64,000 nt of DNA from a virus (IMGVR_UViG_3300032038_000022:54860-118859); one strand, 5' to 3'; numbered from the stretch's first letter, positions 13,727 to 63,837 are shown. Program-made: numbers and translations. Notes: generated by a model from the letters alone, not told the origin.

Positions 13727-13731
13727 TGTAA

Positions 13732-44676: not shown

Positions 44677-44688
44677 ATATGTTTATAT

Positions 44689-44931
44689 TTAAAAATCAAA
44701 AATATCAAATGGTTCGTTATCACCATTTTCACCTAAGACTTGTACTTTATTCTTTCCTTTGATTGTTGTACCCTTACTTCCAAAATCTATCATTGGGAAA
44801 TCTGGATCAACACCCTCAGTTTTCTCTAAGAATTCATCATAAGTTTTCTTAAGTGCAAATAGTGACTCTAATGTATAATCTTCAATTCTGTCTACTTTTA
44901 AAAATTTATTTAAATAGAATTTTAGATCCAT
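44689..44931 (-). CDS. Tail assembly chaperone, downstream (T-like) ORF; probably a frameshift extension
   Basis: Overlaps the end of 44906..45667 in the +1 frame and directly precedes the TMP; in-frame ATG at 44931. Confidence 0.55.
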   Translation of the reverse strand: MDLKFYLNKFLKVDRIEDYTLESLFALKKTYDEFLEKTEGVDPDFPMIDFGSKGTTIKGKNKVQVLGENGDNEPFDIFDF

Positions 44932-45667: not shown

Positions 45668-45702
45668 ATCTTATATTTTGCTATCGTTGCATCTACGACT
45701 TA

Positions 45703-45744
45703 AAAACAAAAATAGCTCTATGCTATCAACATAAAACTATTTTT
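45703..45744 (-). terminator. Intrinsic terminator after the GMPR/IMPDH gene
   Basis: Minus strand AAAAATAGTTTTATG-loop-CATAGAGCTATTTTT followed by GTTTTT; both mismatches are G-U pairs on this strand. Confidence 0.6.
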
Positions 45745-45805
45745 AATATACTACTTTAATCTTGTTCTTACTACTCTGAGAGTTTCTTCCAAACCTTCTT
45801 AGTCA

Positions 45806-46918: not shown

Positions 46919-46979
46919 ATCATAAGTAAGGATAGGAAGGGGAAATAATAGCAAATTATACAGTTTCAATGAGCTAAAA

Positions 46980-47265
46980 AGCGCCCAAGGGTCCACGATA
47001 GTGGCATTTCATTTAAAATCCCGGCCTGCCCGGATTCCATCCGCCACTCGCTTGCTACATTCGTCACTTCATTCCTCATTCCACTTAACGCTCCCACCCC
47101 GGCTCTATGTAAAGAAGCATTCCAAAGCTACTCATCGGTACTCGGGACAGATGCAGTCCCTCGTTTAACCCTCTTCGTTTAACGCTTTGGCAGCTACGCT
47201 ATTGAATAAGACTCCTGAGGAGTAAGCGGAACGACTGAAAGGAGTGAAGCGATAACGACGAAGAA
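46980..47265. other. GC-rich, highly self-complementary non-coding region (ncRNA or single-strand origin-like)
   Basis: Nested inverted repeats: 47000-47005/47043-47048, 47060-47093/47218-47262, 47122-47128/47184-47190, 47144-47148/47156-47160; palindrome 47211-47223. Confidence 0.55.
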
Positions 47266-47436: not shown

Positions 47437-47473
47437 CACCCTTACGGGTGACCCTAGGACATTTCTTAGGGTC
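47437..47473. other. Two adjacent hairpins at the helicase stop
   Basis: CACCC-TTAC-GGGTG and TGACCCTAGGA-CATT-TCTTAGGGTCA. Confidence 0.55.
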
Positions 47474-49526
47474 ATTTCTTCTTCACTATCTCAAAACCAT
47501 GAGTATTCTTTCCATTTTCTCTCCATTGAGTTGATTTTATTTCAAACCAATTTTCAAGATCAGTAGCCTTAGGTGGTTTTGTATATCCACATCTTTTATA
47601 GAGTTCTCCTAGGTCATTTTTAATTCTAGCACTACTATACTTCTCTCCAATTTGGAAATACCCTTGAACTAGTTCCTTAAGATCATTAATTGTAAACTTT
47701 CCCTCTTTAAGCATATTTTGTTTTACAGCAGTGACGTCATACCAGCATTCTTTTAATTTTTCAAGGCCAAGTTCAAGATAATATCGAGCAATAGCAGAAC
47801 CATTAAGTTGATTATCTATTAAAGTTTGTCTTTGCTTATCACTTAGTGGTGCTTCACAAAAGAACTTTAGTTTATCTCTTAAAGTTAGAAGATTATTATA
47901 TTTTTCTAAAAAGTCATTAATATCCTCAGTTTCACTTTTTAGATCAAACACTTCTCCGATTTGATTAAATACTGTAAATCTGTCTGCATAGTCGATTTGT
48001 TGTATATCGAATGCTCTTGAGTCTGCAATTTTAACAAGAGAATTAACTTTAGGAATATAATTAATAATATTTCCGTTTTGATCATATATTCTATCAACTG
48101 CTATATAATTATCCTTATAATTTAAAAGTTTAGAAATATGTTCATAATTTTTTGCTAATTCCTCTTTTGTATCCTCTGGTGCAAAATTATAAGCTCTTAA
48201 TAGTTTTTCAGAGGCATCCTCTCTTTCTTGAATCTTTTTACCAAGTTCTTTAGCATTTTCTTTAGTATCTTTATTAGGGAGAGTATAATAGAATTCAGCT
48301 TCATTTTTCCATGGGTTCTCTATTAATCTTTGTCGTCCTAGTATTTGTGGTAAGTCTAAGGAAATATCAATACTAAGACAACTTACATTAGCGTCGCTGA
48401 GAATATAAGATTTAGCACAGGTACTATAAAAATCAGCTCCTAAATATACCGTTCTAGTACACATTGTGAATTTCTTTTGTTTTTGTCCACTAGCAAGATC
48501 ACTTTTAGTTAATACTCTGCCAATAGTATAGGAGGATCCAAGTTTAGCTTTTATCTTATCTCTATTTTCTTTAGTATCCGCACAGAGAATATTTACGTCA
48601 TCTGGTTTTATTTTGTTATTTCTTATCAAACTTATTATATTTTTTACCGAGTTGACGTATATTACTGCTTCCTTTGATTGTATTTCAGTTACTATACCTG
48701 TCGTTTTATCTACAGAGAGTTTACTTGGGTAATTTCCTTCGAGATACTTTTTTATTATTGGTTTTATTGCCTCCCCTATACTTCTTACTTTTCGTATTAG
48801 TAGGCTTGGTTTCCCTGTTCTTCCGGGATCATCTTTTTCCCAATCTAACCAAAAAGCTGGTAGAGATGCAAACTCTGGCATCATTTGAAGGTATTTAGAC
48901 ATCATTGGAGTAGCACTAACGTATACTACCGTAGGAATTCCCTGTAGAGCTTTAACAAAAGAATTTTCTGTAGAGGACTTGAATACTGCATCTGTAAAAA
49001 TGCTCTGAAATTCATCTACAACTATATAGAACTGTTGCAAAATATTAGCTTTTATAAGAATATCCTTGATCAGGTAGAATGAATCATAAGTAACTAGAAT
49101 TTTAGCAGGTTTTCCATTTGCTTGACATGAATTCCAATACCAAGATATATCATTCTGTAATTTTATATATTCTTCAGCTCTTCTTTTATTAAACTCTTCT
49201 TCAGAGAATGTTTCTGGTTCTCTAATACTTTTAAATTTTCCTGGACTATCATTTGTATCCTTATCAACAGTTAGAGCTTCATCTAAGTTATTCTTTGCAT
49301 AATAAACTTCTCCTGGATGTTGATCTGTTTTATTTTGTAATAATATTCGTCTTGGAGAACATAAAATTATATTCATCTTGTTCTTAATACAAAATTCAGT
49401 ATATCCACAGCCAGGAATTTGTTTGTCTAGTATGTGTGGGAAAGGAAACATATAATTTTCTTCATATCCTTCCCAATCACTAATATATCTAATTCCTTTT
49501 GGTACAATTATAGGTGTTCCATTCAT
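47472..49526 (-). CDS. Superfamily 2 helicase-like protein, origin-binding-protein (UL9-like) type, with putative C-terminal DNA-binding domain
   Basis: PGCGYT (atypical Walker A), VVDEFQ, VSATP, IYVNSV, TVYLGADF and QILGRQR motifs. The UL9-like label is an inference. Confidence 0.7.
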   Translation of the reverse strand: MNGTPIIVPKGIRYISDWEGYEENYMFPFPHILDKQIPGCGYTEFCIKNKMNIILCSPRRILLQNKTDQHPGEVYYAKNNLDEALTVDKDTNDSPGKFKSIREPETFSEEEFNKRRAEEYIKLQNDISWYWNSCQANGKPAKILVTYDSFYLIKDILIKANILQQFYIVVDEFQSIFTDAVFKSSTENSFVKALQGIPTVVYVSATPMMSKYLQMMPEFASLPAFWLDWEKDDPGRTGKPSLLIRKVRSIGEAIKPIIKKYLEGNYPSKLSVDKTTGIVTEIQSKEAVIYVNSVKNIISLIRNNKIKPDDVNILCADTKENRDKIKAKLGSSYTIGRVLTKSDLASGQKQKKFTMCTRTVYLGADFYSTCAKSYILSDANVSCLSIDISLDLPQILGRQRLIENPWKNEAEFYYTLPNKDTKENAKELGKKIQEREDASEKLLRAYNFAPEDTKEELAKNYEHISKLLNYKDNYIAVDRIYDQNGNIINYIPKVNSLVKIADSRAFDIQQIDYADRFTVFNQIGEVFDLKSETEDINDFLEKYNNLLTLRDKLKFFCEAPLSDKQRQTLIDNQLNGSAIARYYLELGLEKLKECWYDVTAVKQNMLKEGKFTINDLKELVQGYFQIGEKYSSARIKNDLGELYKRCGYTKPPKATDLENWFEIKSTQWRENGKNTHGFEIVKKK

Positions 49527-49765: not shown

Positions 49766-50302
49766 CTAATCTTTACGTGCCTGTGTGAGAACATCTTTAA
49801 GGTCTTTCTTAGACGTACGACGAGCGTTTTGAGCTATCTTATTTCCAAGGTAAAACGCACCTCCACCAACAGCTACTGTAGTTCCTATTCTCTTTAACCC
49901 GGACCCAACTATAGCTCGTTTTATTGCCCTATTCTTACTGGAGATTTCTTTAATTGCTTTCTCGTGCTTGGCGATTTTGTCAGTAAATCTCTTTCTATCC
50001 TTCTGTAGCTGTTTATCAAACCAATTACCGCTACCTTCATGACCAAAATGATCCTTCTTAAAGAATTTTGAACTCTCTATACTGTCTTTATGATCAGCTA
50101 TTTGCGCTAGAGCCTCATGACCCTTCTTTGAGTCTACTGCGGCACCTAATAATATGGCTCCAGTACCAGCCCCAACTGCACGCTTGGACCACTTATTGAT
50201 ACCTTTCTCATAGTAAGGATCATTTGGAGCATTCTTATCGATATCTCCGTATGCCTCATACTTGTTCTCTTTAGAGAACTCCTTACTTCTTAATACTATC
50301 AT
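49766..50302 (-). CDS. Leader-family protein (MIVLRSKEFS), basic, with two glycine-rich hydrophobic segments
   Basis: AVGAGTGAILLGAAV and IGTTVAVGGGAFYLG. Confidence 0.7.
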   Translation of the reverse strand: MIVLRSKEFSKENKYEAYGDIDKNAPNDPYYEKGINKWSKRAVGAGTGAILLGAAVDSKKGHEALAQIADHKDSIESSKFFKKDHFGHEGSGNWFDKQLQKDRKRFTDKIAKHEKAIKEISSKNRAIKRAIVGSGLKRIGTTVAVGGGAFYLGNKIAQNARRTSKKDLKDVLTQARKD

Positions 50303-50421
50303 CGTCTTTCCTTTTTATTGATTATTATTTACCAAGAATAATTAATATTACTCTAAGTAATACAGAATATAATCTTTCTTTCGTATCACTCTCATTAAAA
50401 ATCTTCTAGAAGTTCATTTAT

Positions 50422-50985
50422 TTAGATTCTACAAAGACTAATGTATTTAGGACTTATATCCTCTTTAATACAAACACAATTTTCAGGAGAACCCCAATCT
50501 AAAGGTGTAGAAACTTTCATAATATCTTCCGTACTGATCATTCCGAATTTACTTGGGTGTGCTTTTCTTAATGACTCTGCTTTAGTTTCATTCCAATTTG
50601 ACACCTTTTGAGCAACCCACCATTCTGGATCTCCTTCAATTTTCTCCATTCTATTGTAAACATCAGTAGGAATTTTTATTGTTACTAGAGCATATCTTCC
50701 ACCAGGTCTTATTGGCTTCACTAATTTATTTTTATCTTTGACTAAATAGATTAATCCAGTATCTTTTATTCCAAGATACTTATTCTCCTCACGAGTTTTA
50801 AAATATTTAGTCTTCAAGCCTTCTTTTCTTATACTAGGCAGATTTTCAACTTTAGTAACATGATATAAAGTCACAAACCCTAACTTAGAAGGAATTTTAT
50901 GCGTTTTATTTCCCTTACCTTTTTCTAGTGGGGTCTTCTCTGGAAAATTTTCCTTAAATGTTTTTGTTTTTCTAAGTACTATCAT
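50422..50985 (-). CDS. Leader-family protein (MIVLRKTKTF) with ADP-ribosyltransferase/Tpt1-like NAD-binding fold
   Basis: TLYHVT..NLPSIRKEGL, GLIYL, LVTIKIP and EDISPKYI motifs. Confidence 0.65.
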   Translation of the reverse strand: MIVLRKTKTFKENFPEKTPLEKGKGNKTHKIPSKLGFVTLYHVTKVENLPSIRKEGLKTKYFKTREENKYLGIKDTGLIYLVKDKNKLVKPIRPGGRYALVTIKIPTDVYNRMEKIEGDPEWWVAQKVSNWNETKAESLRKAHPSKFGMISTEDIMKVSTPLDWGSPENCVCIKEDISPKYISLCRI

Positions 50986-51145
50986 CGTTTTTTTTTATAT
51001 TTATTGTGTTTCTAAGCTGATACTGCAAGGATCGGAGCACCTATTGTTCCCGTAATCTCCAACTCTTAACCATTTTTACAGCCCTAGTAAATCTATTTGA
51101 AACTTTTTAGCATGTTTGACATCCTTCTTTCAATTTACCTATTCT

Positions 51146-51472
51146 TCAACATAGGTATTTTATCCAGTTGTAATGTTTTCTAATTGTTAAGTACTTGGGA
51201 TTCTTTTCCCCTTCATAAGCTTCCTGCTCGAAACTAATTGCCCTATAGGATTTCTTCCACTTAAATCCAGAAATAATCCACCTAATTAAGAATTCTAGGA
51301 TATACCAAAGATAAAAACCGATAATCAGAGTTTCTTTTTCTTGTTCCCAGTGGATAGTTTCATGAAGAATATCATTCTCCTTCAGTATTTTCCCACGTTT
51401 CGCTAGAATCCAGGGACCTATCGTCATCGCTTTGTATCCTTTCGGTACTAGGTTCGTTTGAATTATCTTCAT
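51146..51472 (-). CDS. Small membrane-associated zincin-like (HExxH) protein
   Basis: ILHETIHWEQ, a hydrophobic helix, and ISFEQEAY. Confidence 0.65.
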   Translation of the reverse strand: MKIIQTNLVPKGYKAMTIGPWILAKRGKILKENDILHETIHWEQEKETLIIGFYLWYILEFLIRWIISGFKWKKSYRAISFEQEAYEGEKNPKYLTIRKHYNWIKYLC

Positions 51473-51554
51473 TTTCTTTATTTTTAAACTTTAGTGGTCT
51501 TCCCTTTACATCCGGCTCTCTAAACTTCAATTCTTTATTTCGAAGTATTATCAT
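51372..51554 (-). pseudogene. Possible remnant of a leader-family gene (MIILRNKEL)
   Basis: Leader is intact, but after ~27 codons the ORF runs out of frame into 51146..51472. Confidence 0.35.
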
Positions 51555-51574
51555 TTCTCTTAGTTATTTTTCTA

Positions 51575-52138
51575 TTAATTAATCCAAAATGCTTTCTTAA
51601 TTTTTTGAGCTAATTTAAGCACTTCATCTTTTTCCATAGTTAAAAACTCATCCTCTTCCTCTATCTGCCACTTAATATCGTCTTTAATATAATCCCGCAA
51701 AGTTTTTATGTACGGCTCTTCATCAACAAACTCATAATCATCACTTCCTATAGTTACGAATTTATTCTCGGTTATATTAAAACATAGTAACCAATAACCT
51801 TTAATATCCCACATAAGAGGATAAATTAATGTTGATTTGGGATATCCATCTGCGGCCATTGAAGGAACTATAATCTCACGATGAACATGCTCTACATATT
51901 TAGGATCTATACATGGCATAAAAGGAGTTACATCAGACACAACTTCTTTTCCTAGTTGCTTCAATAAAGATTGAACATCTGGCTTTTTCCACACTCTTTC
52001 AACTCCTTTTAGGCTTTGTTGCATATTAGTGGGAAGATCAGATATAGAAGGACATGTGTAGTCTGGAGTTTTTACTACAGATGATTTTTTCTTGCTAAAA
52101 TTAAACCAAGAAAAGTTTTTATTTCTTAGTATTATCAT
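51575..52138 (-). CDS. Leader-family protein (MIILRNKNFS), possible SMI1/KNR4 (SUKH)-like C-terminus
   Basis: IYPLMWDIKGYWLLCFNITENKFVTIGSDD...KTLRDYI resembles the SUKH core. Confidence 0.55.
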   Translation of the reverse strand: MIILRNKNFSWFNFSKKKSSVVKTPDYTCPSISDLPTNMQQSLKGVERVWKKPDVQSLLKQLGKEVVSDVTPFMPCIDPKYVEHVHREIIVPSMAADGYPKSTLIYPLMWDIKGYWLLCFNITENKFVTIGSDDYEFVDEEPYIKTLRDYIKDDIKWQIEEEDEFLTMEKDEVLKLAQKIKKAFWIN

Positions 52139-52139
52139 A

Positions 52140-52466
52140 CTATTTTCTCCAGGATTTATATTCTATAACATCTTTTATAGCCCCTAATCTTGGATTATTA
52201 TACTTAAACTCCATCTTCTTAGCCTCCCGGTGTCGTAGTTTAAGTAGATCTTTTTCAGCCTTGTCAGGATTTTGACCTTTGTATTGTGCCCATGCCCGAT
52301 TTCTATTTCTAACATCCTCTGGAAGCGTTTTAGATTTCATAGGATTGATTATATACTTATAAGATATCTCTTTTTCCCTAGGATCACGATACTCTTTTAA
52401 ACTACCATTATACTGATCCTTTATTCTCTGTATAGCTCCAAAATTTTTATTCCTTAATACTATCAT
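52140..52466 (-). CDS. Leader-family small basic protein (MIVLRNKNFG)
   Basis: 108 aa, Lys/Arg-rich. Confidence 0.65.
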   Translation of the reverse strand: MIVLRNKNFGAIQRIKDQYNGSLKEYRDPREKEISYKYIINPMKSKTLPEDVRNRNRAWAQYKGQNPDKAEKDLLKLRHREAKKMEFKYNNPRLGAIKDVIEYKSWRK

Positions 52467-52473
52467 AGTGTAT

Positions 52474-52860
52474 CTACATTATAGGATGTCCCATAGTTGC
52501 AATAGCATGAGAGTTGACGGCATCACGATGCATTTGATCGTGCATTGCTAAATTATTGTACATCATTGAATTATCGTGTGTCGCTAACCTATTGTGCTTC
52601 ATTACACTATGGTCAGCTAAGCGGCGAAGAAATCGTAATCTTTTTGGTTTTTTACTATCATCGTCTGAATATTTCTTTTCCTCCGGATGATACTTTTTCC
52701 AAATTTCTTCTGTAAGTTCCTTCATTTCTCCATTTTCATCTATGTAAGCCGGAATACATACTCGTTCTCCGTTTTTATTTCTACCATCGATATGAAGACC
52801 TGGTTTGAAAACAGGCCCTTTCTTACTTTCAGAGAAGTTTTTATTTCTTAGTATTATCAT
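52474..52860 (-). CDS. Leader-family protein (MIILRNKNFS) with His/Met-rich C-terminus
   Basis: Start reset to ATG 52860, which gives the leader; internal KKYS motif. Confidence 0.65.
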   Translation of the reverse strand: MIILRNKNFSESKKGPVFKPGLHIDGRNKNGERVCIPAYIDENGEMKELTEEIWKKYHPEEKKYSDDDSKKPKRLRFLRRLADHSVMKHNRLATHDNSMMYNNLAMHDQMHRDAVNSHAIATMGHPIM

Positions 52861-53230
52861 AATCTTTCTTTTTCTTAAGATAGGATAGTGCACCGAGAGT
52901 AACTCCTGCACCAATACCAACTCTCTTTCCTAATTTCATAGCCTTCATCGTTCTAGGACTTGTAATAGAGCGTTTTATCAACTCTTGTCTAAAAGCTTTA
53001 GGATTAGAATTAATACCTTGTAATGTTTTAGCTGCTTGTTCATCACCAGCTTTTATTTTATTTGGAAGATCAGCTATTCTTTTACCGACTTCTCGGGTTT
53101 GATTATTAGCACTAATACCACCAGCAGTCAGTGAACCTGCTTTTCCACCGAGATAACCTAAAGCGGCAGTATTAATTGCATGTTTAGCTTTACTAGGTTC
53201 TTCGGTCTTTTTCTTCCTCTTTACTATCAT
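52841..53230 (-). CDS. Leader-like (MIVKRKKK) basic glycine-zipper protein
   Basis: Start reset to ATG 53230; AALGYLGGKAGSLTAGG and VGIGAGVTLGALSYL. Confidence 0.6.
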   Translation of the reverse strand: MIVKRKKKTEEPSKAKHAINTAALGYLGGKAGSLTAGGISANNQTREVGKRIADLPNKIKAGDEQAAKTLQGINSNPKAFRQELIKRSITSPRTMKAMKLGKRVGIGAGVTLGALSYLKKKKDYDNTKK

Positions 53231-53231
53231 T

Positions 53232-53642
53232 TTATACACAAAGGCTAAATAAGTATGAATATTTTTGTATATTTTGGATAAATGTTTCGCACTCACTAGT
53301 TATCCCTTTGAATTCAACGCCTTCAGGAATAGATTCATAAAATTGTTTTGTTCTTTCCTCTACTTCATTAATTAGGGAGATAGCGTCAGATGCATTACAC
53401 GGAATTCCGTTGATTTCATTTGGTCCCATTTGTCCAAGGATTCCCATATACCCTTCTGCAAGACCATCTTCATACTCATCTATTATTTCCAGAAATTCAT
53501 CAAGGCGGGTATGTATATTATTTTTAGGAGCAGACCAATGAAGATTTTTAGTTCTTGTTTTAAATCCCTCTAATGAGCAGAGAAATTCAATAAAGACCTG
53601 TTTATCTACATCACTGTATATCTTTTGTTTAAATGTTATCAT
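53232..53642 (-). CDS. Dps/ferritin-like protein with leader (MITFKQKIYS)
   Basis: KNLHW..., IHTRLDEF, EDGLAE ferroxidase-type pattern; start reset to ATG 53642, downstream of the terminator. Confidence 0.75.
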   Translation of the reverse strand: MITFKQKIYSDVDKQVFIEFLCSLEGFKTRTKNLHWSAPKNNIHTRLDEFLEIIDEYEDGLAEGYMGILGQMGPNEINGIPCNASDAISLINEVEERTKQFYESIPEGVEFKGITSECETFIQNIQKYSYLFSLCV

Positions 53643-53655
53643 ACCAAAATTTATT

Positions 53656-53688
53656 AAAAAGAGGGACAAGCTATTACACTCATCCCCC
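53656..53688 (-). terminator. Intrinsic terminator after the tail tube gene
   Basis: Minus strand GGGGGATGAGT-GTAATA-GCTTGTCCCTC followed by TTTTT. Confidence 0.7.
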
Positions 53689-53696
53689 TAGGTTTA

Positions 53697-54290
53697 TTAA
53701 ATATTATTATGTTCTCTGTTATAGTGCTCAAATGTGAGGGTCAGAGATATATCTGCACGATCACTTTCACTATCGAGATCACCGTTTTCATTCAGCGGAG
53801 CGTCTTGGAATTGACAGTTATAGAAAGTAAGTGTCTTTACATCAATACGCTGAGCATTAGTAATAATCAGCTGAAGGTCGGCTACGAGGTCATCCTTACG
53901 GAAGCTGTAACGGGTCTCAGGATCAGCAATCTTATTACGCCAGTCAGTTACAAAATACGTAATAGAAGCATCCTCACGATCAACGAAGTTAAGGGTAATA
54001 GTTCCACTTGTACTTTGATTAGTACGTTGTTCAATACGCCATCCACCACGCATTTGTTTTGTAATACCGGTTGCTGAATAATCAATACCTACCTGAACAC
54101 TATTAAGACGAGCATTAATGATATCATCACCAGGATAGTAAACAATCTTAGGTGCATTGATAACCTTTAACTCATACATATCACCACGAAGGAATTCTTT
54201 GTTATTATCCTTGTAAGTGTTCTGATAGTCAATAAATTGCATACGGCCACTATATTCACTTGACCGTACCAGGCTTGCTACTGTTGCCAT
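53697..54290 (-). CDS. Tail tube protein (T4 gp19-like)
   Basis: 197 aa after the sheath-like gene; GTITLNFVDRED, TLTFYNCQF and ISLTLTFEH are tube-fold patterns; followed by a terminator. Confidence 0.7.
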   Translation of the reverse strand: MATVASLVRSSEYSGRMQFIDYQNTYKDNNKEFLRGDMYELKVINAPKIVYYPGDDIINARLNSVQVGIDYSATGITKQMRGGWRIEQRTNQSTSGTITLNFVDREDASITYFVTDWRNKIADPETRYSFRKDDLVADLQLIITNAQRIDVKTLTFYNCQFQDAPLNENGDLDSESDRADISLTLTFEHYNREHNNI

Positions 54291-56599
54291 ATTCTTTTAT
54301 TTACGTTTAAAGTTATGTCTAGAGTCATATGATTTTTGACTAAGTCGCTAATTTCTGTCTCTAGTGTTAATTCTATTTTGTTATTATAAAAGTTTGCCTC
54401 ATAGTTTGTAATTATAAGTTTTCTAATTACAGAGAAGTTTAGCTTAACTTTATTAATAACATTTTCTATTTTTTCTTGAATTTTACCAGTCATATGCTCT
54501 CCTAAGAAAAGCCATTTCTTTTTCTCTAATTCTCTAGCAACTTTTCCCAATACAAATCTCATAATACCGCTTGTTTCATACTTAGGACCATCTTGATAGG
54601 ATTTATAGAAGTACATTTGACCATTTTCAATTAAGTAGTTGGATTTTGATGCTTCTAAGTTTTCTACAAGGTTAGTATTTTCATAGGGATTATTTATAAC
54701 AATACCATCAGTTGTTTTATTTACTGCTGGGTTGGGCGGTTGATATAATACAACGTCTGTAGTAAGGGAGTATATATCACCAAGTATTGCTAATAGGTAG
54801 AGATAATATCCAGGTCTATAGTTACCATCACTGAGTATAAAGTTATTATAGAAGTATATAAGAAAGTTCTTTTTATCCTTGATATAGTTATAGGAAAAGT
54901 TAGTTTTAGTATTTTCTATTAGTATTTGACAATTTTTATCAATTGCATAATTTAATAGAGTTGTGTAAATACTATTATAATCTAATCCCTTTAAATATAC
55001 TTCTGGATTAGGAACTAGGAAATAGTCAAATAATATTGTAGAGTTGAATAATAATTCTGTTGATTTCCAATATGAATTTCTGGTAGTTGATTCGATATTA
55101 CTTCGTTTCATTACCCAAGATCCTTCTGGCAGAATATCATCAATAGTATAATATTTGATTTCTCCATTTTCATCCTTATATGTTTCTTTTACTTTACAAT
55201 ATACCAGGTTGCTTTCCTTAGAAATTATATAGTCTATTCTTTCTTCACCATTCTCAAATAAAGATCCTTCAAAGTATTCAGAGTAATCATATCTACTAAT
55301 AATAAATTGATAATAGTCGTCTCCTAATGAATTAATTTGAATACTAATATCTCCCTTTATTCCAGAATTACCAATTGTTTTACTCCAGAATTCAATTCTA
55401 GAACTACCTAATGTTATTTCTGATAATATGTTGTGTGTTTCTTCGAAATTAGGTTCTAGGATTAAACCTGGAATATTGTAGAAATAAGTTACCGGACAAG
55501 CAAAAGACGCCTTCATTAAACCATTTTCTAGAGTATAGCCAAGTTCTTTAAGTACTCTTTCGAATGATTCCCTGCTAGTGTACTGTCTTTGTTCGTCATA
55601 GTATTTATTCTTTCCTGATGAGTCAGGTAATAGGTCTGGTTCTTTTATATCACCTATAGTATTGGCAATAATAATTCTTTTTCCTTCTTTGTTTAGGAGA
55701 ATTATATAAGAACCTTTCTGAAAAAAGTCAGCATTGTCGAAGTTATAATTAAAAACTAACGTTTGGTAACCTTCATTAATTTTTTCCAAGTCAAGATTTG
55801 TAGTATCAATTACTTTAGAACTATACTCCCAATCTATTCTTGCAGTATCACCAACTTTAGGGTTTACTACTACTTCTTCAAGCTCTTTTAGACTATGCGC
55901 TGTATAATTTGGATTTTCAATAACTACGTCTGGTAATAAATTCCAAGTTCCTCTATTATAGTTGTAATAAAGTGTATAATTTTTTTCTTCAAATTGTTCT
56001 CCAAATTTTGGATAACAGTAGGAAATATCTGAATCGACCTTACAGATTCTAAGAACATCACGATTACTTAGGGATGCTGAGTTAACACCAGTATTTTGTG
56101 TTAGATCTTCTACATCTATATAATCATGACAGTCCTCTAACCATATAAGAAGGTCATATCTCAGAGAATTTAATCCTACTTCATATTTTCCATCATCATG
56201 AATAACTTTATATAATATTCCATTATCTCCTTCTTCAGGTAAACCAACAAAACTAAATTCTCCAATTACTTCCCCTATTATTTGTGAGTTATCCTCTATA
56301 TAATAGATTCCTTTTTCATTTACGTAAGTTGAGTAATCTATATAATCGGTTTGATATTTATTTGGTTCATCTGAAACAGGTTTGTAAAGAAATAGTGTTA
56401 CTCCAGACTCTAAGAGTTCATCAAAATAGTCCCTATCTTTAAAATTCCTACCAAACCATATATCAAGTTCATCTTTTGTATGTACTAAGATTGGTTTCTC
56501 ATAGGACATAGAGACATCAGGTACTTCTGCAAATATCATGAAATCATCATAATCCGGAGAAGTATAATTAATTTTTGTTTTTCCTAATCTTACATACAT
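54278..56599 (-). CDS. Tail sheath-like protein
   Basis: N-terminal KPILVHTKDELDIWFG and C-terminal RFVLGKVARELE..WLFLGE..NKIELTLE patterns; directly upstream of the tube. Confidence 0.6.
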   Translation of the reverse strand: MYVRLGKTKINYTSPDYDDFMIFAEVPDVSMSYEKPILVHTKDELDIWFGRNFKDRDYFDELLESGVTLFLYKPVSDEPNKYQTDYIDYSTYVNEKGIYYIEDNSQIIGEVIGEFSFVGLPEEGDNGILYKVIHDDGKYEVGLNSLRYDLLIWLEDCHDYIDVEDLTQNTGVNSASLSNRDVLRICKVDSDISYCYPKFGEQFEEKNYTLYYNYNRGTWNLLPDVVIENPNYTAHSLKELEEVVVNPKVGDTARIDWEYSSKVIDTTNLDLEKINEGYQTLVFNYNFDNADFFQKGSYIILLNKEGKRIIIANTIGDIKEPDLLPDSSGKNKYYDEQRQYTSRESFERVLKELGYTLENGLMKASFACPVTYFYNIPGLILEPNFEETHNILSEITLGSSRIEFWSKTIGNSGIKGDISIQINSLGDDYYQFIISRYDYSEYFEGSLFENGEERIDYIISKESNLVYCKVKETYKDENGEIKYYTIDDILPEGSWVMKRSNIESTTRNSYWKSTELLFNSTILFDYFLVPNPEVYLKGLDYNSIYTTLLNYAIDKNCQILIENTKTNFSYNYIKDKKNFLIYFYNNFILSDGNYRPGYYLYLLAILGDIYSLTTDVVLYQPPNPAVNKTTDGIVINNPYENTNLVENLEASKSNYLIENGQMYFYKSYQDGPKYETSGIMRFVLGKVARELEKKKWLFLGEHMTGKIQEKIENVINKVKLNFSVIRKLIITNYEANFYNNKIELTLETEISDLVKNHMTLDITLNVNKRIWQQ

Positions 56600-56600
56600 A

Positions 56601-59600
56601 TTATAATCCGACGACTTTTAATACAGGTGATAATGCAGTTGAAACTACACTAGTTGCCAATTTTACTTTGTCCTTCTTTTTATCTTTTTTTAGCTGAGCT
56701 TTTCTTTTTTTATTCGCTGCAGAGTATGAACTGGTAGTATTAAGTTCTGTAGTGGGGTTCTCACCTACAATACTAAAGACTAGGTTTAAATCACTACCGC
56801 CGGAATCAATATCACCAGTTCTCTCTTCTACAAAATCTCTAAGTACAACTAGAAGATCATATTTAGAAATAGTACTGAGTTGTGGAGTAAGACTATAAAT
56901 TATACATCTGAAAGTTACATTTTTGTATAATGCAGGACAAACATAAGATTTATCAATTGCCGTAATACCTGCTGGATCTGGATACTTCGTTTGAGGAATA
57001 TCACTAAATAATACTAATGAAGAACCTATGCCAAACCCTATTGATTCTTTACTATAGTAGTCTATCTTATGAGGTTCACTGCTATATATAGCTGCATCGG
57101 AACATCTTTCAAAGTAAGTTCTCCAAGATTTATAAGCATCATCAGCAATGGTTAGTCTTAGTTCGTTTGTAAATTCCATGGAAATAGGGTATACAATTTC
57201 ACCATCAAACAAGTTAAGACTTTTAGTAGACATTTTACTCTTACTTAAGTCAAAACCTGTAAAAGGTATCCATTTATTATATCCAGTATTAACTCCATGA
57301 TGTGCTGCATTCCATATATTAATTTCAGCTAATGATGGAAGATATGAATACCCACCATTTTCCTTACCACAAAAAGGTTCTAGAATAATTTCCCAGTGGG
57401 TGTTATCGTCTAGAGTTATTAAATTTCCTCCAGGATTTTGTTTAGATGCAGTAAATTTAGTAGGTTCATTCATATAAGGACTACTTTTAATAGCAGTGCG
57501 TAGATCTTCAACTGATTGTATATCATTTGGCTTAACCCCTGCTAAATCCTGAAGAGTAGTAGTTATGCCCCATCCTTGCATATAATTCGATTTAAAATCG
57601 TATTCTTTTTTTGGATGCGCACCAAGTAATGCTTCACCCGCAGCGGCAGCTAATGCATTTCCCAGTTTTTTAAGTGAAAAACTATTACTTTTATTTTTGT
57701 CCTTACTATTTTTATCACCTCTTGAAGTGTTTGTTCTATTATTACCATATTCCCAACCCTTTTCATCTTTCCATTTTTCTGGTCTATTCATAGGAAGGGA
57801 TGTGTCTATTTGTTGTGCACCAAAAGTAGAAGCTACATTATTAATTACTGATTTGGTTAATTTACTTGCAGCTTTTTTAGCTAATTCTTTAGTTCCTCCA
57901 CCAGCAATTACATCTTGTAAGATTCCGACATCTTTTCCTGGGAGTCTATCTCTATTCGATTTTGTAGAAATCTCAAGAACTCTTCGTGCTGCAACAAGTG
58001 TCATTAAGGTTGTATCAAGTAGTATTTGTCTTACGCTACTTTTTCCATAGGGGTTAGGACCAAATACCCAAGTCCCAGATGAACTCTTTACTAATCCAGC
58101 TGCTTGTTCGGCTACATATCTCAGATATTTACTAGCATTAATACCATTAGTCCAGCTTACACAAAGTTTATACTCTGCCATTTGAACATTTCCTTGATCA
58201 CCCAGAATAGTTTTAAAAAGTTGTTGTTCAAATTCATCTGCGCGTGCCTTTGTAACCTCACCTCCACTTAAGTAGGCACTCATTAAAGACTTAACTTTAC
58301 TTGCCCAACCTTTATCAAGTGCTTTATTATCTGCAAAGCGTAATATATTATTGTAGTATTGCTCTAAGCTTTTATTTCTAGAGTTTAATATTGTTTTTAA
58401 GTTTTCAGCAGTATTTTTTTCATCTTCTTCTGCCTGAATAGCCAAGTCGTATAGTGAGTCCGAATCTGGATCAAATTGTCTATGTTCATCTCCTTCTTCC
58501 TCTACGTCTTCTCTAGACTTACTAAGAGAATCTTGAAATCCAGTATGTTTATAATCATCTCTTGTCGGATCATCTTCTTCATCTCTTTTGTGATTAGGTC
58601 CATAGTTTATTTTATCTACATCATTATCCTTAGCTTTTTCAGCAGATCTATATAATGTATCTGTTTCTGGATTAAACTGTTTGTGATCTATGGACTCATC
58701 ATCTTTACTAGCATTTTCAAGATTATCTGATAATTCTTTATTCCAGGCTAGGTTTTCATTATCTGATCCTTGTTCAGTATTATCACTAAAATTAAATTTA
58801 TCAGTCTCGTTTATTCCCAAGTTAGTATCATAAAGGGACCCATTTTCCAGTGTTTCAAACTGTGCATGATCAGCCTTTCCTTCACCATTCAGCTTAGTAG
58901 TATCATCTTTAGCAGTTTTTATATTCTCTTCATAGAGTTTATCCTTTTCAGGGTCAAACTGTGCATGGGTTCCATCAGAGGATAAATTTGTTTTAGACGT
59001 ATCATCAGATTCTACATCTTCTCTAGACTTACTAAGGGAATCTTGAAATCCAGTATGTTTATAATCATCACGGGTTTCATCATCCTCTTCATCTCTTTTA
59101 TAATTAGAGCCATAATTTATTTTATCTAGGTCGTCAGGTGTAATATTTTTTCTAATATCACTAAGAGAGTCTTGGTCTTCTGTAGTTAAGTCTAATCTTT
59201 CTTTACTTAAACCTTCATTCTTAAAATCAATATTAGTATCTACCTGCCCTTCAAAGTTGTAAATATCTGTTTCAGTAACTGCCAAAGCAATATCATAAAG
59301 AGAATCAGTGTCTGGATTGAACTGTGCATGATCAGCCTTTCCTTCACCATTCAGCTTAGTAGTGCTATCGGGTAAGATAGGTTTTAATTCATCTTCGAGA
59401 TCTACATCCTCTGTATTTAAATCTAACCTTTCTTTACTAAGTCCTTCTCCCCTAAAGTCAATATTAGTATCTTCTTCACCTTCAAAATTAAACTTATCTG
59501 TTACCTCTAGGTCTATAAGTTTATTACTGAGTGAGTCAATATCGTTTGGAGAAATATCAAGTAAGATATCGCTTAGATCAACGTCCTCTGTAGTTAAATC

Positions 59601-61814
59601 TAGTCGAGTATTACTAAGATTATCTACTTCTTTCTCTTCAAGGTCAAGTCTAGTATTACTTAACTTATCAGGTTCAATATTTTCATTATTTACTACTTGT
59701 TCTTTATTATCTTCAAGTCTCTCAATTTCTGAAATATCTTCAACTGATACTAATTTTTTACTAAGTTCCTCTAGTTCAGTAGTACTTTCAGTTATATTTT
59801 CTAGATTTTGGCTTAAATCCTCTATTTCCTTATCACCATCTAGAACTTTAATTGAATTGTCACTAAGTTTATCTACTTCTTTCTCTTCAAGATCAAGTCT
59901 AGTATTACTTAACTTATCAGGTTCAATATTTTCATTATTTACTACCCGTTCTTTATTATCTTTAAGTGCGGATATCTTGTCCCCTGATTCTATAATTTTC
60001 TTAGCTGGTTGATCTGGAAGATTAATATCAACTTGTGGAGTAAGCGTTTCTAAATGATCATTATCTAAAGAATCAATTAACTTTGGATCAATTTTTTCAT
60101 GGGTTGTGCTAAGTTCTGGTGTATCGAGGATTTTTCCTTTGTCTTGAATTTGTTCTAGACTTGAATCAAGATTTTTTATTTCTTTAGTATCAATTCGATC
60201 AACTCTAGACTCTAATTCAGAAACTTCTTTATCCTCTAATTCCTTCTTAATATTAATAGCTTCGCCTGAAAGTTTTATTTTATCATCCTCTGGATCTGGA
60301 TAATCGATAACTTCTTCTTGCTTTGTATTAAGTTCTTGAACTTTATCACTGACTTCAATATTTTCTTTTTCTTGATTAAGTTTTTTCAGCTCAAGTATAT
60401 CTCCATTGATCTTTTCTTTTTTATCTTCTAAAAAGATATTCTTTTTACCTATATCCAAAAGTTCAGGTTCTGAATTTAACTTTTTTATTTCCTTAGCCTG
60501 CCCTATAATATTCTCTTTAGAAGTATTTAATTCATCTTTTCGTATTTTTCCCTGGACAGATTCTATATCTTTCTCCAGTTTTATTTCATCTTCCTCTTTA
60601 GGTTTATTGATAAGTTTCTTAGCTGGCTCTCCAATGATTTCAACCTTCTTAACATCATTAATGTCTTCTCGTTCCTTACTGAGTTTGACGCCTTTCTCAT
60701 CTTTAACCTTGATATCACTTCGAAAGGAAGACAATTCTGTTTTTTCTTTTATACCCAAGTTTTCACGATCCTTACTTAGTTTTTCTAGTTCTATTATATC
60801 TATATTTTCCCTAGTATCACTAAGAGGTTGATCTTTAATCTTACCTGGGATTGTAATATTCTTAGTCTTTTTTAATGTTTCAACTTCTCCGTTTTCATTA
60901 ATTGCTGAAGAAACTGGTTTGTTTTCACCTAAGGACTTAAGCTTTGGTAACTCACCTTCAATATTATTTTTAGGTTTCTTTAAAGATTCGATTTCTTTCT
61001 TCTCACCGCTTAACCAAATCAGTGATCCATTATCACTAGCACCTTTAATTATATTTCCTTCTTGCTGTTTTAATTCATTTTCAGAGAAATTTTTTCCTAT
61101 ATCTAGTAGTTTATTTTGCAAAGCATCAACAGTTTTCTCAACTTTTAATCTTTCTCTTAGATTATAATCAAGTTTCTGTTTTTCATCTATTTCTAGATCA
61201 ACAATAGTATCTTTTCCTCTTTTTAATGATAGATTTTTATCTATTTCTTTTGCAAAATAAACATTTTCTCTTTCCTTTTTTAGGTTGGGATCTTTAATTT
61301 CCCCTATATCTAAACGATCGTTACTGAGACTTGGATCTTTTTGATTATCTATAATTGAGTCTATGTAACCAGATAATGAAGTTTTATCATTTATTTTTAG
61401 ATCTTCTCTCTTAGTTCCTAATGAAGTATTCTTTTCACCTGGTGCAATATTTTCAATATCATCATCAAGAGTAGTTTCCTTTTTATTACCAAGGATAGTT
61501 TCTCTTTGTTTTTCCAGAGTCCCTACATTTTTATTTGTAGTTAATGTTTCTCTACTGTCCTTTAGTTTAGATATAATTCCAGAATTACCTCGGGTATCCA
61601 AGACTTCAACTTTATCACTTAAGGAGGTTATTTCCTTCAACGAACCAGATCTCCATCCTGGAACCCCTAGGTTATCCTTTCCAAGATTGATGCTATCATC
61701 AAGAGCTTGTCTTTTCTTTTTTAAATATTTACTTAAGGCAGATATTTCTTCCGGACTTGTAAATTGATCACAACCTGTTTGTACTTTATTTTCTTTTCTA
61801 ATCTCTGTATCCAT
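56601..61814 (-). CDS. 1737-aa protein: long charged repeat region plus C-terminal globular, possibly tube-fold, domain
   Basis: About 1130 aa of L-S-x-x-R/K-x-D/N-L/I repeats; C-terminal ELRLTIADD..WRTYF..LNLVFSIVGE. Confidence 0.6.
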   Translation of the reverse strand: MDTEIRKENKVQTGCDQFTSPEEISALSKYLKKKRQALDDSINLGKDNLGVPGWRSGSLKEITSLSDKVEVLDTRGNSGIISKLKDSRETLTTNKNVGTLEKQRETILGNKKETTLDDDIENIAPGEKNTSLGTKREDLKINDKTSLSGYIDSIIDNQKDPSLSNDRLDIGEIKDPNLKKERENVYFAKEIDKNLSLKRGKDTIVDLEIDEKQKLDYNLRERLKVEKTVDALQNKLLDIGKNFSENELKQQEGNIIKGASDNGSLIWLSGEKKEIESLKKPKNNIEGELPKLKSLGENKPVSSAINENGEVETLKKTKNITIPGKIKDQPLSDTRENIDIIELEKLSKDRENLGIKEKTELSSFRSDIKVKDEKGVKLSKEREDINDVKKVEIIGEPAKKLINKPKEEDEIKLEKDIESVQGKIRKDELNTSKENIIGQAKEIKKLNSEPELLDIGKKNIFLEDKKEKINGDILELKKLNQEKENIEVSDKVQELNTKQEEVIDYPDPEDDKIKLSGEAINIKKELEDKEVSELESRVDRIDTKEIKNLDSSLEQIQDKGKILDTPELSTTHEKIDPKLIDSLDNDHLETLTPQVDINLPDQPAKKIIESGDKISALKDNKERVVNNENIEPDKLSNTRLDLEEKEVDKLSDNSIKVLDGDKEIEDLSQNLENITESTTELEELSKKLVSVEDISEIERLEDNKEQVVNNENIEPDKLSNTRLDLEEKEVDNLSNTRLDLTTEDVDLSDILLDISPNDIDSLSNKLIDLEVTDKFNFEGEEDTNIDFRGEGLSKERLDLNTEDVDLEDELKPILPDSTTKLNGEGKADHAQFNPDTDSLYDIALAVTETDIYNFEGQVDTNIDFKNEGLSKERLDLTTEDQDSLSDIRKNITPDDLDKINYGSNYKRDEEDDETRDDYKHTGFQDSLSKSREDVESDDTSKTNLSSDGTHAQFDPEKDKLYEENIKTAKDDTTKLNGEGKADHAQFETLENGSLYDTNLGINETDKFNFSDNTEQGSDNENLAWNKELSDNLENASKDDESIDHKQFNPETDTLYRSAEKAKDNDVDKINYGPNHKRDEEDDPTRDDYKHTGFQDSLSKSREDVEEEGDEHRQFDPDSDSLYDLAIQAEEDEKNTAENLKTILNSRNKSLEQYYNNILRFADNKALDKGWASKVKSLMSAYLSGGEVTKARADEFEQQLFKTILGDQGNVQMAEYKLCVSWTNGINASKYLRYVAEQAAGLVKSSSGTWVFGPNPYGKSSVRQILLDTTLMTLVAARRVLEISTKSNRDRLPGKDVGILQDVIAGGGTKELAKKAASKLTKSVINNVASTFGAQQIDTSLPMNRPEKWKDEKGWEYGNNRTNTSRGDKNSKDKNKSNSFSLKKLGNALAAAAGEALLGAHPKKEYDFKSNYMQGWGITTTLQDLAGVKPNDIQSVEDLRTAIKSSPYMNEPTKFTASKQNPGGNLITLDDNTHWEIILEPFCGKENGGYSYLPSLAEINIWNAAHHGVNTGYNKWIPFTGFDLSKSKMSTKSLNLFDGEIVYPISMEFTNELRLTIADDAYKSWRTYFERCSDAAIYSSEPHKIDYYSKESIGFGIGSSLVLFSDIPQTKYPDPAGITAIDKSYVCPALYKNVTFRCIIYSLTPQLSTISKYDLLVVLRDFVEERTGDIDSGGSDLNLVFSIVGENPTTELNTTSSYSAANKKRKAQLKKDKKKDKVKLATSVVSTALSPVLKVVGL
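58501..59128. repeat. In-frame direct repeat of ~118 bp (58501-58618 / 59011-59128)
   Basis: Both copies encode DKINYG.N.KRDEEDD.TRDDYKHTGFQDSLSKSREDVE; offset 510. Confidence 0.85.
58858..59363. repeat. Exact 44-bp in-frame direct repeat (58858-58901 / 59320-59363)
   Basis: TTKLNGEGKADHAQF occurs twice; offset 462. Confidence 0.85.
59613..59962. repeat. In-frame direct repeat of ~100 bp (59613-59713 / 59862-59962)
   Basis: DNKE.VVNNENIEPDKLSNTRLDLEEKEVD.LS occurs twice; offset 249. Confidence 0.85.
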
Positions 61815-62257
61815 TATTCATCTAGTGTTTCAATTATACTCATCAAGGTGTAGTTATAAATTACGTTAGCAGTTTCAGAATAACCCTGTTTTAATACTAC
61901 TTTAAATCTATAAGTTCTCTTGTCTCTCGTATATTGTAGTTCATCACCAACTTCCAACGTACCATCATTAGTAATAACCTCCAGTGTATCTCTATTTCGA
62001 TTCCAAACATCTTTCATTTCGCTAAGATTCACTATTAGTTTTGTTGTAAACTGGTCGTAATCATTCTCTAAAGTACTATCAGAAGAATAAGTGCCTCCAA
62101 ATACATTTTTCCACTTAGAGTTATCCTTTGGTCTAAGAACTACAAAATCTGTACCAGCTAATGCTAACTGGATTTTTATGGCTTGTGCTCCAATAGAATA
62201 GAGTTTATTGGCTTTCTCTAATTGAGAAGACACCATACCTTCCTTATTACTTTCCAT
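61814..62257 (-). CDS. Putative head-tail joining/neck protein
   Basis: 147 aa, beta-rich, LEVGDELQY..YRFKV; upstream of the tail genes. Confidence 0.35.
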   Translation of the reverse strand: MESNKEGMVSSQLEKANKLYSIGAQAIKIQLALAGTDFVVLRPKDNSKWKNVFGGTYSSDSTLENDYDQFTTKLIVNLSEMKDVWNRNRDTLEVITNDGTLEVGDELQYTRDKRTYRFKVVLKQGYSETANVIYNYTLMSIIETLDE

Positions 62258-62623
62258 TTATTCATTAATTAATGAACAGAATCCTTCTTTATCGATAATA
62301 TAAGTAATCAGTTTATATATTTGAGACATTTGAAGTGTTCCGTTCAGTGACATTTCTAAGATATTTCTGTTTACCTGCTCAGTATTAGTTCTTACAAATC
62401 TAGCTTCTTTTCTCAAGAAGTCGTCTATTTCATACTGAGAGTATTCAAGGTTATTTGGGATATAGATTTTTACCTTACTTTGATCTGGTATAATACTAAT
62501 TACATCATTAGGAATTTTATCTACAACCTCATAGTCCTCAAATCCATTCTTATCTAGTTTTTCAATCAGTTTCTCTATCATCTTTCCTGACGAATAAGAA
62601 TAACATTTTTCAACTATAATCAT
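62258..62623 (-). CDS. Hypothetical protein with leader-like N-terminus (MIIVEKCYS)
   Basis: 121-aa ORF with an ATGA overlap. Confidence 0.55.
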   Translation of the reverse strand: MIIVEKCYSYSSGKMIEKLIEKLDKNGFEDYEVVDKIPNDVISIIPDQSKVKIYIPNNLEYSQYEIDDFLRKEARFVRTNTEQVNRNILEMSLNGTLQMSQIYKLITYIIDKEGFCSLINE

Positions 62624-63837
62624 TTTTCAAAAATATTTGGTTTAACTCCAGTACTCATAAACTTCTTAATGATAAATTCAAATTCATTTCTAGTCTTTAT
62701 TGTGTATGTATAAAGAATTACTTTTCCAGTATCTGATTTTATCATTAATTTTTTTATAGCATTATCTATATCTTCTAAATTTTCGCAATCTTTTGAAACT
62801 GAAATTACTAAAAGTCCACTTGCTAATCCTAATTGAATATCACAATCGATATCACCGGTAGAATAATTAAATCCTTCAATATAATGAAGTTTATTTAGCG
62901 TATCCTCTAAGAATTTATTATTAAAACTTTTTCTAGTAATAGCCTTAGGGAAACCAAGTCTAATAAGCTCATCATCTTTGAACTTGTTAGCTACTCCTTC
63001 TATTACAGTTTTAATTGCTTTCAATGCCATTTGTTTTCCGCCTTTTTGAAAAGAAGCAATACCTTTTCCAAGACCTGAAGTTAAAATCTTCATAAGGTCA
63101 TATTTATTAAGATCACTAACACTAAAGGTTTTTATATCTTCTGAAGCTTCTTGTAATCTTGAGGCTACAATTGCATTATTATCTAAGAGGTTAATTTTTG
63201 TTCCTAGTAATTCACTCATTTCCATAATAAAGTTGCAAATCACTTGATAATTTGTAAAAGTAATATCTACTCCATAGGAATAGACCTTAGGATTAATAGC
63301 TCTTGAACTATATTCCATTTTAGCATACTTCTTACAATAATAATCTAATGTTTTATCAACTTTCTCAAACTCTTCTTTGGACATTCCAAACGTATACATT
63401 GTTACAGTATTATCGTGGATTGCAAAATTAAGTTTATATTTGGAAACATCTCTGTCATTAAACTCAAATTTTTCATTTATATTTGCTCTCTTACTTATGC
63501 TATCCCCAATTGTAATACCTTGAATCTGGTAAACACCAAATTGTCTACGAATAGCCTTATCAACTTCTTGATATTTAACTCGATTCATAGGTTTATGAAG
63601 ATAATTTAAGAAAAACTTAGCAACTATACCAGTTAGAGTACCGTATTTGGCACCAGTTATTGCATCATCAAGTACCTGCCTATTTTCGCTAATTCCACCT
63701 ACAATAGCACCTATAGCAGTACCAGCCAGAGCTCCTTTTGTAGCCATTTCTACTACACCTGGAACTTTATCCATATCCTTAGGACCAGTATAATGTCCTT
63801 CAGGAATAGAAAATTCTTTACGTCTAAATACTATCAT
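62620..63837 (-). CDS. Leader-family protein (MIVFRRKEFS) with glycine zipper
   Basis: GALAGTAIGAIVGG and ITGAKYGTLTGIVA; internal IKTFS. Confidence 0.65.
   Translation of the reverse strand: MIVFRRKEFSIPEGHYTGPKDMDKVPGVVEMATKGALAGTAIGAIVGGISENRQVLDDAITGAKYGTLTGIVAKFFLNYLHKPMNRVKYQEVDKAIRRQFGVYQIQGITIGDSISKRANINEKFEFNDRDVSKYKLNFAIHDNTVTMYTFGMSKEEFEKVDKTLDYYCKKYAKMEYSSRAINPKVYSYGVDITFTNYQVICNFIMEMSELLGTKINLLDNNAIVASRLQEASEDIKTFSVSDLNKYDLMKILTSGLGKGIASFQKGGKQMALKAIKTVIEGVANKFKDDELIRLGFPKAITRKSFNNKFLEDTLNKLHYIEGFNYSTGDIDCDIQLGLASGLLVISVSKDCENLEDIDNAIKKLMIKSDTGKVILYTYTIKTRNEFEFIIKKFMSTGVKPNIFEK

Follow-up and report, generated by a model that had tools for sequence, protein, structure and literature searches.

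Why do ten genes in one phage region, with bodies that have little in common, begin with nearly the same nine or ten residues? The question was raised by a 64,000-nucleotide stretch of viral DNA (IMGVR_UViG_3300032038_000022:54860-118859, referred to as the window), which forms the end of a virus record of 118,859 bp. A first-pass annotation had noticed leaders of the type MI[IV]LRxKx[FY]S on genes between positions 49766 and 63837, and had proposed that they load a swappable set of proteins into the head for injection, in the manner of the capsid-targeting sequence (CTS) of phage T4. Our analysis suggested that the leader is probably a T4-type capsid-targeting and processing propeptide, fitted to a gp21-type prohead protease of different specificity. 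The proposed analogy fits the results of the computation: a gp21-fold protease and a gp23-like capsid protein were predicted, the motif recurred in the protease linker, at the putative propeptide boundary of the capsid protein and in the scaffold, and the leaders were confined to the virion module.

The 118,859-bp record was rated 32% complete by CheckV, which indicated a genome of about 370 kb and therefore a jumbo phage. The window has a GC content of around 32%, carries nearly every gene on the minus strand, and turned up in bovine gut metagenomes of several studies. No head genes were found in the 119-kb fragment with PHROGs or with Pfam, including the S77, S78 and Gp23 models. The European Nucleotide Archive (ENA) contig k141_3288097 matched the window at 99.9% identity over 11.4 kb and encodes an identical 405-aa protein, and it was therefore assigned to the window's own phage; it extends upstream and contributed the head core. 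A relative, the IMG/VR contig G001 (207 kb, 56% complete), was retrieved with the tail tube protein of the window as the anchor; its tube protein was 90% identical and its gene order was the same.

A shared leader and its proposed protease

All ten proposed leader starts were present on the minus strand, seven of them canonical and three degenerate at the [FY][SGAT] end. When the starts of the open reading frames (ORFs) of the whole 118,859-bp record were scanned with the pattern MI[IVT][LFKVI][RKE], ten of the 11 matches fell in the region, so that leader starts opened 10 of its 15 genes, compared with 1 of 104 elsewhere in the record (Fisher p = 3e-10). The same bias was seen in the relative, where a virion module of 44 kb had the tag on 31 of its 56 ORFs, compared with 4 of 202 elsewhere (p = 2e-20). 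Its block between the tube and tape-measure genes was again made up of leader genes (MILPRIKNFS, MILLRNKDFS, MIYLKRFS and MILRRLFS), and approximately 25 more lay upstream, including the variants MYIRRKVFS and MATYxLKRKT[FY][SG]. The leaders of the first-pass annotation were confirmed, with the correction that one of the ten heads a doubtful ORF and two others lack the cut-site end. The system was about three times larger, with around 12 further leader genes within 17 kb on the upstream side of the window and around 30 in the relative. Eight of the window's leader genes lie between the tube and tape-measure genes, while most leader genes of the phage sit among the head genes.

The motif was defined by aligning 50 leaders from the three contigs on their aromatic residue (position 0). 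Its core, L-[RK]-x-K-x-[FY]-[SGTA], comprised L, I or F at -5, R or K at -4, K at -2 (48 of 50 leaders, a count partly forced by the search pattern), F or Y at 0 and S, T, G or A at +1, with no conservation past +1. The MI[IVL] start was strongly conserved, with isoleucine at -7 in 29 of 50 leaders, and the modal tag length was 10 aa. The motif was kept in relatives whose protease is only 49% identical.

Behind the leaders the proteins appeared unrelated, as had been claimed: once the first 12 residues were removed, no BLASTP match among them fell below E = 0.05. The codons of the leaders varied synonymously (TTA/CTT/CTA, AGA/CGA/AGG, AAT/AAC, TTT/TTC, TCT/AGT), no common motif was found in the 45 nt upstream of the leader genes, and neighboring genes without a leader began with quite different residues. 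These patterns argue that the leaders are under selection at the level of the peptide. On a closely related contig, a GNAT acetyltransferase (PF00583, L015:185-541) begins with MILLRDKYT; an enzyme, therefore, also carries the tag.

The same motif was found inside the proteins of the head core. In the protease of the window's phage (429 aa), KEFS, IRVKVFS, LKAKEFS and VKQKEYS all fall within residues 197-272, and the capsid protein (486 aa) contains EYAKMFS as well as LQQKLFS, directly followed by GYAETPLL. A scaffold-like protein of 812 aa (L017:5092-7530) and a Zn-ribbon protein of 278 aa (L017:4231-5067), both of the same phage upstream of the window, contain 12 [KR]x[FY]S sites (including three DYMxRxFSE repeats) and five sites (two in the first 22 residues), respectively; from their sequences, they look like core proteins that would be diced by the protease. 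Head-core proteins had 23 sites in 2,005 aa, versus 11 in the 17,199 aa of the tail, baseplate, fiber and other window proteins (18-fold, p = 2e-15), in agreement with the earlier remark that baseplate and fiber genes largely lack the leader. The partial match that had been pointed out in the 2076-aa fiber-like protein (MIVKFEEDFA; window 20594-26824, minus strand) is a look-alike without Lys at -2 and probably arose by chance. Internal KKYS and KTFS sites in the cargo proteins, which had been read as recurrences of the motif, occurred at about chance density, and that part of the proposal was not upheld. Candidate substrate peptides carrying the predicted cut site are MIILRNKNFSESKK and DLQQKLFSGYAETP.

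The positions of these sites were conserved among homologs. In a sample of 30 of the 120 protease homologs listed, 47-93% identical, most kept at least two LK[AV]KxFS copies at corresponding positions. In the capsid homologs, the N-terminal 60 aa or so were variable, both motifs were retained, and the sequence directly behind the second motif was invariant. This is the pattern expected of a propeptide boundary, and it is from this pattern alone that cleavage of the capsid protein is predicted. Capsid and protease homologs numbered in the hundreds, on contigs of up to 427 kb.

Structure prediction indicated that the phage encodes a prohead serine protease of the gp21/assemblin fold. The AlphaFold2 (AF2) model of the G001 protease ortholog (pLDDT 80.6, from an alignment of 42 sequences) comprised an N-terminal domain (residues 1-185) and a helical domain at the C-terminus, joined by a low-confidence, partly disordered linker; the LK[AV]KxFS-type sites fell in the linker. 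When the model was compared with all PDB representatives by VIA-align, T4 gp21 (5jbl) was the top match (Z 12.6, rmsd 2.6 Å over 133 residues), followed by the proteases of varicella-zoster virus (VZV; Z 10.2) and human cytomegalovirus (HCMV; Z 8.5). Foldseek agreed on T4 gp21 with a probability of 1.0. In the homolog alignment, His49 and Ser134 were invariant and His85 nearly so. The Pfam S77 and S78 models did not detect the protease in either phage fragment, and profile searches against PDB sequences returned nothing. A complex prediction of the protease domain with a 76-aa leader protein scored 0.00 and counts neither way.

The capsid protein was tentatively assigned through its neighbors: Pfam Gp23 (PF07068) is carried by 27 of the 30 ESM-Atlas clusters closest to a 484-aa capsid protein, at a score of 0.98. 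A tblastn search of the phage collection gave a weak match of the C-terminal part only, to annotated capsid genes of two E. coli phages, and the Pfam Gp23 model found nothing in either phage fragment. PHROGs and Pfam returned nothing for the protease, the capsid protein, the scaffold-like protein, a 564-aa portal candidate or the putative sheath, and a blastn search of the phage collection with the tube and sheath genes was empty. No cultured relative is present in that collection.

Taken by analogy with T4, these findings suggest a mechanism in which the tag would join Met and two hydrophobic residues to the motif recognized by the phage's own gp21-type protease (L/I/F, R/K, x, K, x, F/Y, small residue). 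Tagged proteins would be incorporated, along with scaffold and protease, into the core of the prohead; as the protease bears a scaffold-like helical C-terminal domain, binding of the tagged proteins to this protease-scaffold fusion would be one option. The activated protease would then clip the tag at maturation, and the mature cargo would stay in the head with the DNA, presumably to be ejected into the host. The genes that separate the tube from the tape measure would form a cargo locus of fast turnover, with whole gene bodies exchanged behind a constant leader.

The scissile bond most likely lies between the aromatic and the small residue of K-x-[FY]-[SGTA], because a P3-x-P1 pattern is shared by gp21 (L/I-x-E), the phiKZ-type proteases ((S/A/G)-x-E) and the herpesvirus assemblins (V/L-x-A before S); the alternative would be a cut behind the small residue. 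Cleavage, the exact bond, the targeting role, packaging and injection are all steps that we infer from these better-known systems.

Several points weigh against this interpretation. AF2 gave a poor model of the capsid protein (pLDDT 51), which was left out of the fold search, so that the Gp23 assignment rests on language-model neighbors and one weak tblastn match. The role of the tag as an address, as distinct from a cut site, is drawn by analogy with T4, and three of the ten window leaders are without the [FY]-small end, so they may escape cleavage. In addition, the protease and head genes sit outside the window, on the overlapping contig and in the relative, and the whole clade is uncultured.

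Turnover of the putative cargo and other explanations

The proposal that the cargo is swappable was supported by comparison between relatives and between strains. Only four of the ten window leader proteins have a homolog in G001, despite the 90% identity of the tube proteins. In contigs from DNA runs of three separate studies (X1, X2 and X3), which match the window on both flanks, the segment 51555-52834, holding the bodies of three leader genes, was replaced by 352 other letters. In the resulting joint (51554 to 52835), the sequences part at the ATG of the 51554 leader on one side and within the leader codons of gene 52860 on the other. This three-gene replacement behind leaders indicated that the population exchanges cargo bodies while the tag in front of them stays constant. 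The leader DNA of genes 52138 and 52860 was identical at 29 of 30 nt, and the leader may double as a recombination joint. Parts of the region were also found at 100% identity in an RNA run (X12), as contigs only, which is not taken to show transcription.

A more far-reaching version of the targeting model would make the protease-scaffold fusion the cargo receptor, gripping its substrates by the cut-site motif within the prohead core until it is activated, the tag both address and cut site, the leader codons joints, and any gene behind a leader an injected effector. As a package, we consider this possible but doubtful. If it were true, a widespread clade of gut jumbo phages would possess an exchangeable arsenal of 20-40 proteins that can be read from sequence, and the leader would be a minimal portable delivery tag.

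It is unlikely that the motif serves as a cut site only, with entry into the head achieved by Gly-rich segments or bulk capture, and with the clip unmasking or activating proteins, for instance membrane-active or toxic ones, kept inert until they are in the capsid. Past Met and two hydrophobic residues, the leader indeed amounts to the protease motif, which is found at internal positions too, in the protease linker and the capsid propeptide, and several cargo proteins have Gly-zipper-like hydrophobic segments directly behind the tag. However, the MI[IVL] start, with its frequent isoleucine at -7, is conserved, though internal sites need none, and activation is hard to justify for some 30 unrelated proteins that would all be cut ten residues in. 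In the equally short tag of T4, moreover, it is the N-terminal part, apart from the cut-site residues, that targets (PMC9026906). A leader removed by a host protease of the Prp type likewise appears unlikely, as the motif is written into the linker of the phage's own protease, and no PF04327 match was found in the two phage fragments (32% and 56% complete).

The cassette joint raised another explanation, in which the leader acts at the DNA level as a recombination joint and the peptide has no function. The breakpoints at one leader's ATG and inside another leader, together with the near-identical leaders of genes 52138 and 52860, are what such a joint would leave. Leaders mostly differ synonymously, however, so that peptide identity exceeds DNA identity, and the motif is shared by internal sites of the protease, capsid and scaffold proteins, which need no cassette joint. 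We therefore hold a joint without a peptide function to be very unlikely; recombination at leaders is more likely an added effect than a rival explanation.

Eight leader genes are flanked by the tail tube (phrog_45) and the tape measure (phrog_24), a position that would also suit a signal that loads proteins into the tail lumen or sends them along another export route, comparable to the N-terminal packaging signals on effectors of PVCs and other extracellular contractile injection systems (eCIS). Such a role is highly improbable, as the motif is common to head-core proteins and the linker of the head protease, most leader genes sit among head genes, tail, baseplate and fiber proteins are without the motif, and a 10-aa tag is far shorter than the N-terminal signals of eCIS, which span about 50 aa. 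An eCIS or tailocin had been considered while the 119-kb fragment showed no head genes, and was dropped when the overlapping contig revealed a head module. Membership among eCIS/PVC packaging signals, which load the tube of a headless contractile particle, was rejected as well, the phage having a capsid protein, a protease and scaffold-like genes that share the motif.

Finally, that the leader reflects translation initiation, AT-rich codon bias (the genome is about 32% GC, and the codons of Ile, Lys and Asn are AT-rich) or descent from paralogs, with no common function, has a nearly negligible chance, as it is contradicted by the unmatched bodies, the synonymous codons, the unconserved upstream DNA and the different starts of non-leader genes in the same operons, as well as by the F/Y and small residue at fixed spacing, the retention of the motif with a protease at 49% identity and the 18-fold head-core enrichment.

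Genes of the window

In the direction of transcription, the 405-aa and 121-aa leader proteins are followed by a 147-aa protein and an acidic 1737-aa protein, then by a sheath-position protein of 773 aa, by the tail tube, which separates the two leader blocks, and by eight leader ORFs with an HExxH gene of 108 aa among them. Beyond these lie the genes for a protein of 684 aa, an IMPDH-like protein, the tape measure and the baseplate. The leader genes and adjoining features are listed in Table 1.

Table 1. Leader genes and adjoining features, in window coordinates.
Feature	Position	Strand	Observations
405-aa leader protein, MIVFRRKEFS	62620..63837	-	Gly-zipper-like segment just behind tag; PF13441 at 6e-4, below cut-off
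121-aa leader protein, MIIVEKCYS	62258..62623	-	55% identical to G001 128-aa protein starting MMILEKIYS
Tail tube protein, no leader	53697..54290	-	phrog_45 at 2e-7; 90% identical in G001
136-aa leader protein, MITFKQKIYS	53232..53642	-	weakly Dps/ferritin-like: phrog_858 at 3e-7; DUF5856 at 1e-6, 30 bits, below cut-off
129-aa protein, degenerate leader MIVKRKKK	52841..53230	-	no F/Y-S end; Gly-rich segment; no family match
128-aa leader protein, MIILRNKNFS	52474..52860	-	His/Met-rich C-terminus; body missing in three other strains
Variable cassette segment	51555..52834	.	replaced by 352 other letters in contigs X1, X2, X3
108-aa leader protein, MIVLRNKNFG	52140..52466	-	missing in three other strains
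187-aa leader protein, MIILRNKNFS	51575..52138	-	missing in three other strains
60-aa leader ORF, MIILRNKELKF	51372..51554	-	degenerate end; same arrangement in three other strains
108-aa HExxH metalloprotease-like gene, no leader	51146..51472	-	phrog_15610 'protease', 2e-29
187-aa protein, near-leader MIVLRKTKTF-K	50422..50985	-	DUF7002 at 0.013 (G001 homolog 3e-4), both below cut-off
178-aa leader protein, MIVLRSKEFS	49766..50302	-	two Gly-rich hydrophobic segments

Some bodies had been given functional labels by the first-pass annotation. Those of Dps-like, Gly-zipper and ADP-ribosyltransferase-like proteins met with weak signals, all below the family cut-offs, and nothing was found in favor of the SUKH-like label. 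The 187-aa protein starting at 50985 is possibly ADP-ribosyltransferase-like; one ESM-Atlas neighbor cluster is named DarT/PARP (score 0.93), which is a lead only, and the protein is 28% identical to a G001 211-aa protein starting MILLRNKDFS. The 405-aa protein is 56% identical to a 431-aa protein of the relative (MIKFRIKNYT), and the 136-aa protein starting at 53642 is 60% identical to one starting MIKFKQTQYS.

The ORF at 51554 is a doubtful or decayed cassette, because it overlaps the HExxH gene in another frame. The HExxH protein has 47 homologs, nearly all of 92-138 aa and stand-alone, one of which is named DUF4157 (Riemerella); none of the 47 has a leader at its N-terminus, and the gene is probably an interloper in the leader cluster. 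A frameshift joining the 51554 leader to the HExxH protein was considered and rejected on account of these short, leaderless homologs and of three other strains that showed no indel.

Other genes of the region were noted in their own right. The 1737-aa protein (56601-61814, minus strand), between leader genes and the putative sheath, is highly acidic with internal repeats and no family match; its counterpart in G001 has 1557 aa. The IMPDH/GMP-reductase-like gene (PF00478, 5e-38; 45806-46996, minus strand), between the cargo cluster and the tape-measure gene, occupies an odd site for a metabolic gene. Three paralogs of about 670-690 aa, at 47472-49526 in the window and at G000 13328-15391 and G000 44546-46555, all on the minus strand, have a common N-terminus, ..(V/I)P.GIRYISDW, and no Pfam or PHROG match; related copies were found at L004:16154-17488 and L007:12179-14346. 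One copy stands at the downstream edge of the leader-gene cluster in both phages, with G001 having a shortened copy and a split copy, and the family could be a mobile or selfish one.

Outside the window, the fragment's non-structural part encodes an AAA+ protein of 773 aa that contains a peptidase M41 (FtsH-like) domain (G000 16040-18361, minus strand) and an IF-1-like ORF of 92 aa, judged by eye from its N-terminus (G000 33386-33664, plus strand). In its genome size of around 370 kb, its GC content and its IF-1 gene, the phage would be compatible with membership of the Jug jumbo gut phages (PMC12880540). The predicted hosts of that group are Bacteroides or Phocaeicola, and on proteases its description mentions only divergent or fragmented genes (PMC12880540).

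Relation to known systems

The closest parallel is T4, in which a 10-residue CTS, which gp21 removes, directs both IPIII and foreign proteins to the head; the packaged and processed cargo includes Alt, an ADP-ribosyltransferase, and the set of internal proteins (IPs) varies between relatives (PMC9026906). As in T4, the tag studied here has about ten residues at the N-terminus of unrelated, poorly conserved proteins and ends in the motif of a gp21-fold protease. The motif also stands, as predicted cut sites, at the boundary of the N-terminal 60 residues or so of a putative gp23-like capsid protein and throughout the scaffold; the segment trimmed from T4 gp23 has 65 residues. The cargo locus is hypervariable between relatives, as it is in T4, and one cargo protein is possibly ADP-ribosyltransferase-like, as is Alt.

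Unlike T4, where the cut motif is the acidic (L/I)-x-E, this phage would use the basic and aromatic L-[RK]-x-K-x-[FY]-[SGTA]. No conserved Glu, as gp21 specificity would demand, was found in the 50 leaders, which suggested a T4-like working with a different code. Each genome has some 20-30 tagged genes, compared with a handful in T4; a linker holding two to four copies of the motif precedes the helical C-terminal domain of the protease, which is about 150 aa long; and many cargo proteins have Gly-zipper-like hydrophobic segments. The T4 system, furthermore, is known from more than sequence, from which alone the present one is known.

Head proteolysis has also been described in phiKZ, 201phi2-1 and SPN3US (gp175 / gp245), with Ser preferred at P1' and with propeptides that are mostly long (111-254 aa), only two being short (20 and 24 aa) (PMC10052503, PMC5694885). 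These phages resemble ours in their jumbo myovirus heads, many internal or ejection proteins, cut sites predictable from a motif, and an assemblin-fold protease that also cuts itself C-terminally (PMC10052503, PMC5694885). Their motif, in contrast, ends in Glu, and they have no uniform 10-aa tag.

A third comparison is with the L27-type leaders of Firmicutes phages, such as those on the capsid and scaffold proteins of 80alpha, which are cut by the host cysteine protease Prp. Those leaders are also short and N-terminal, place Phe before a small residue (FF before A) and are removed before assembly is complete; unlike them, the leader here is basic and matches the linker of the phage's own protease and the scaffold.

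In the papers searched, neither this tag nor a prohead protease with K-x-F/Y-S specificity was described, and no proteomic data on the clade turned up. Should the tag function as we infer, the injected or internal head proteome of a large clade of uncultured gut jumbo phages could be read from sequence, and a gp21/assemblin-fold protease with basic-aromatic specificity would inform on how specificity evolved in this protease family. The hypervariable cargo locus would probably take part in a phage-host arms race, as T4 IPI does, and a 10-residue tag with its known protease could be leveraged as a compact tool for loading proteins into capsids. Compared with the systems described above, what is known is the kind of system, that of the T4 CTS, and what is new is the code, the scale and the cassette behavior.

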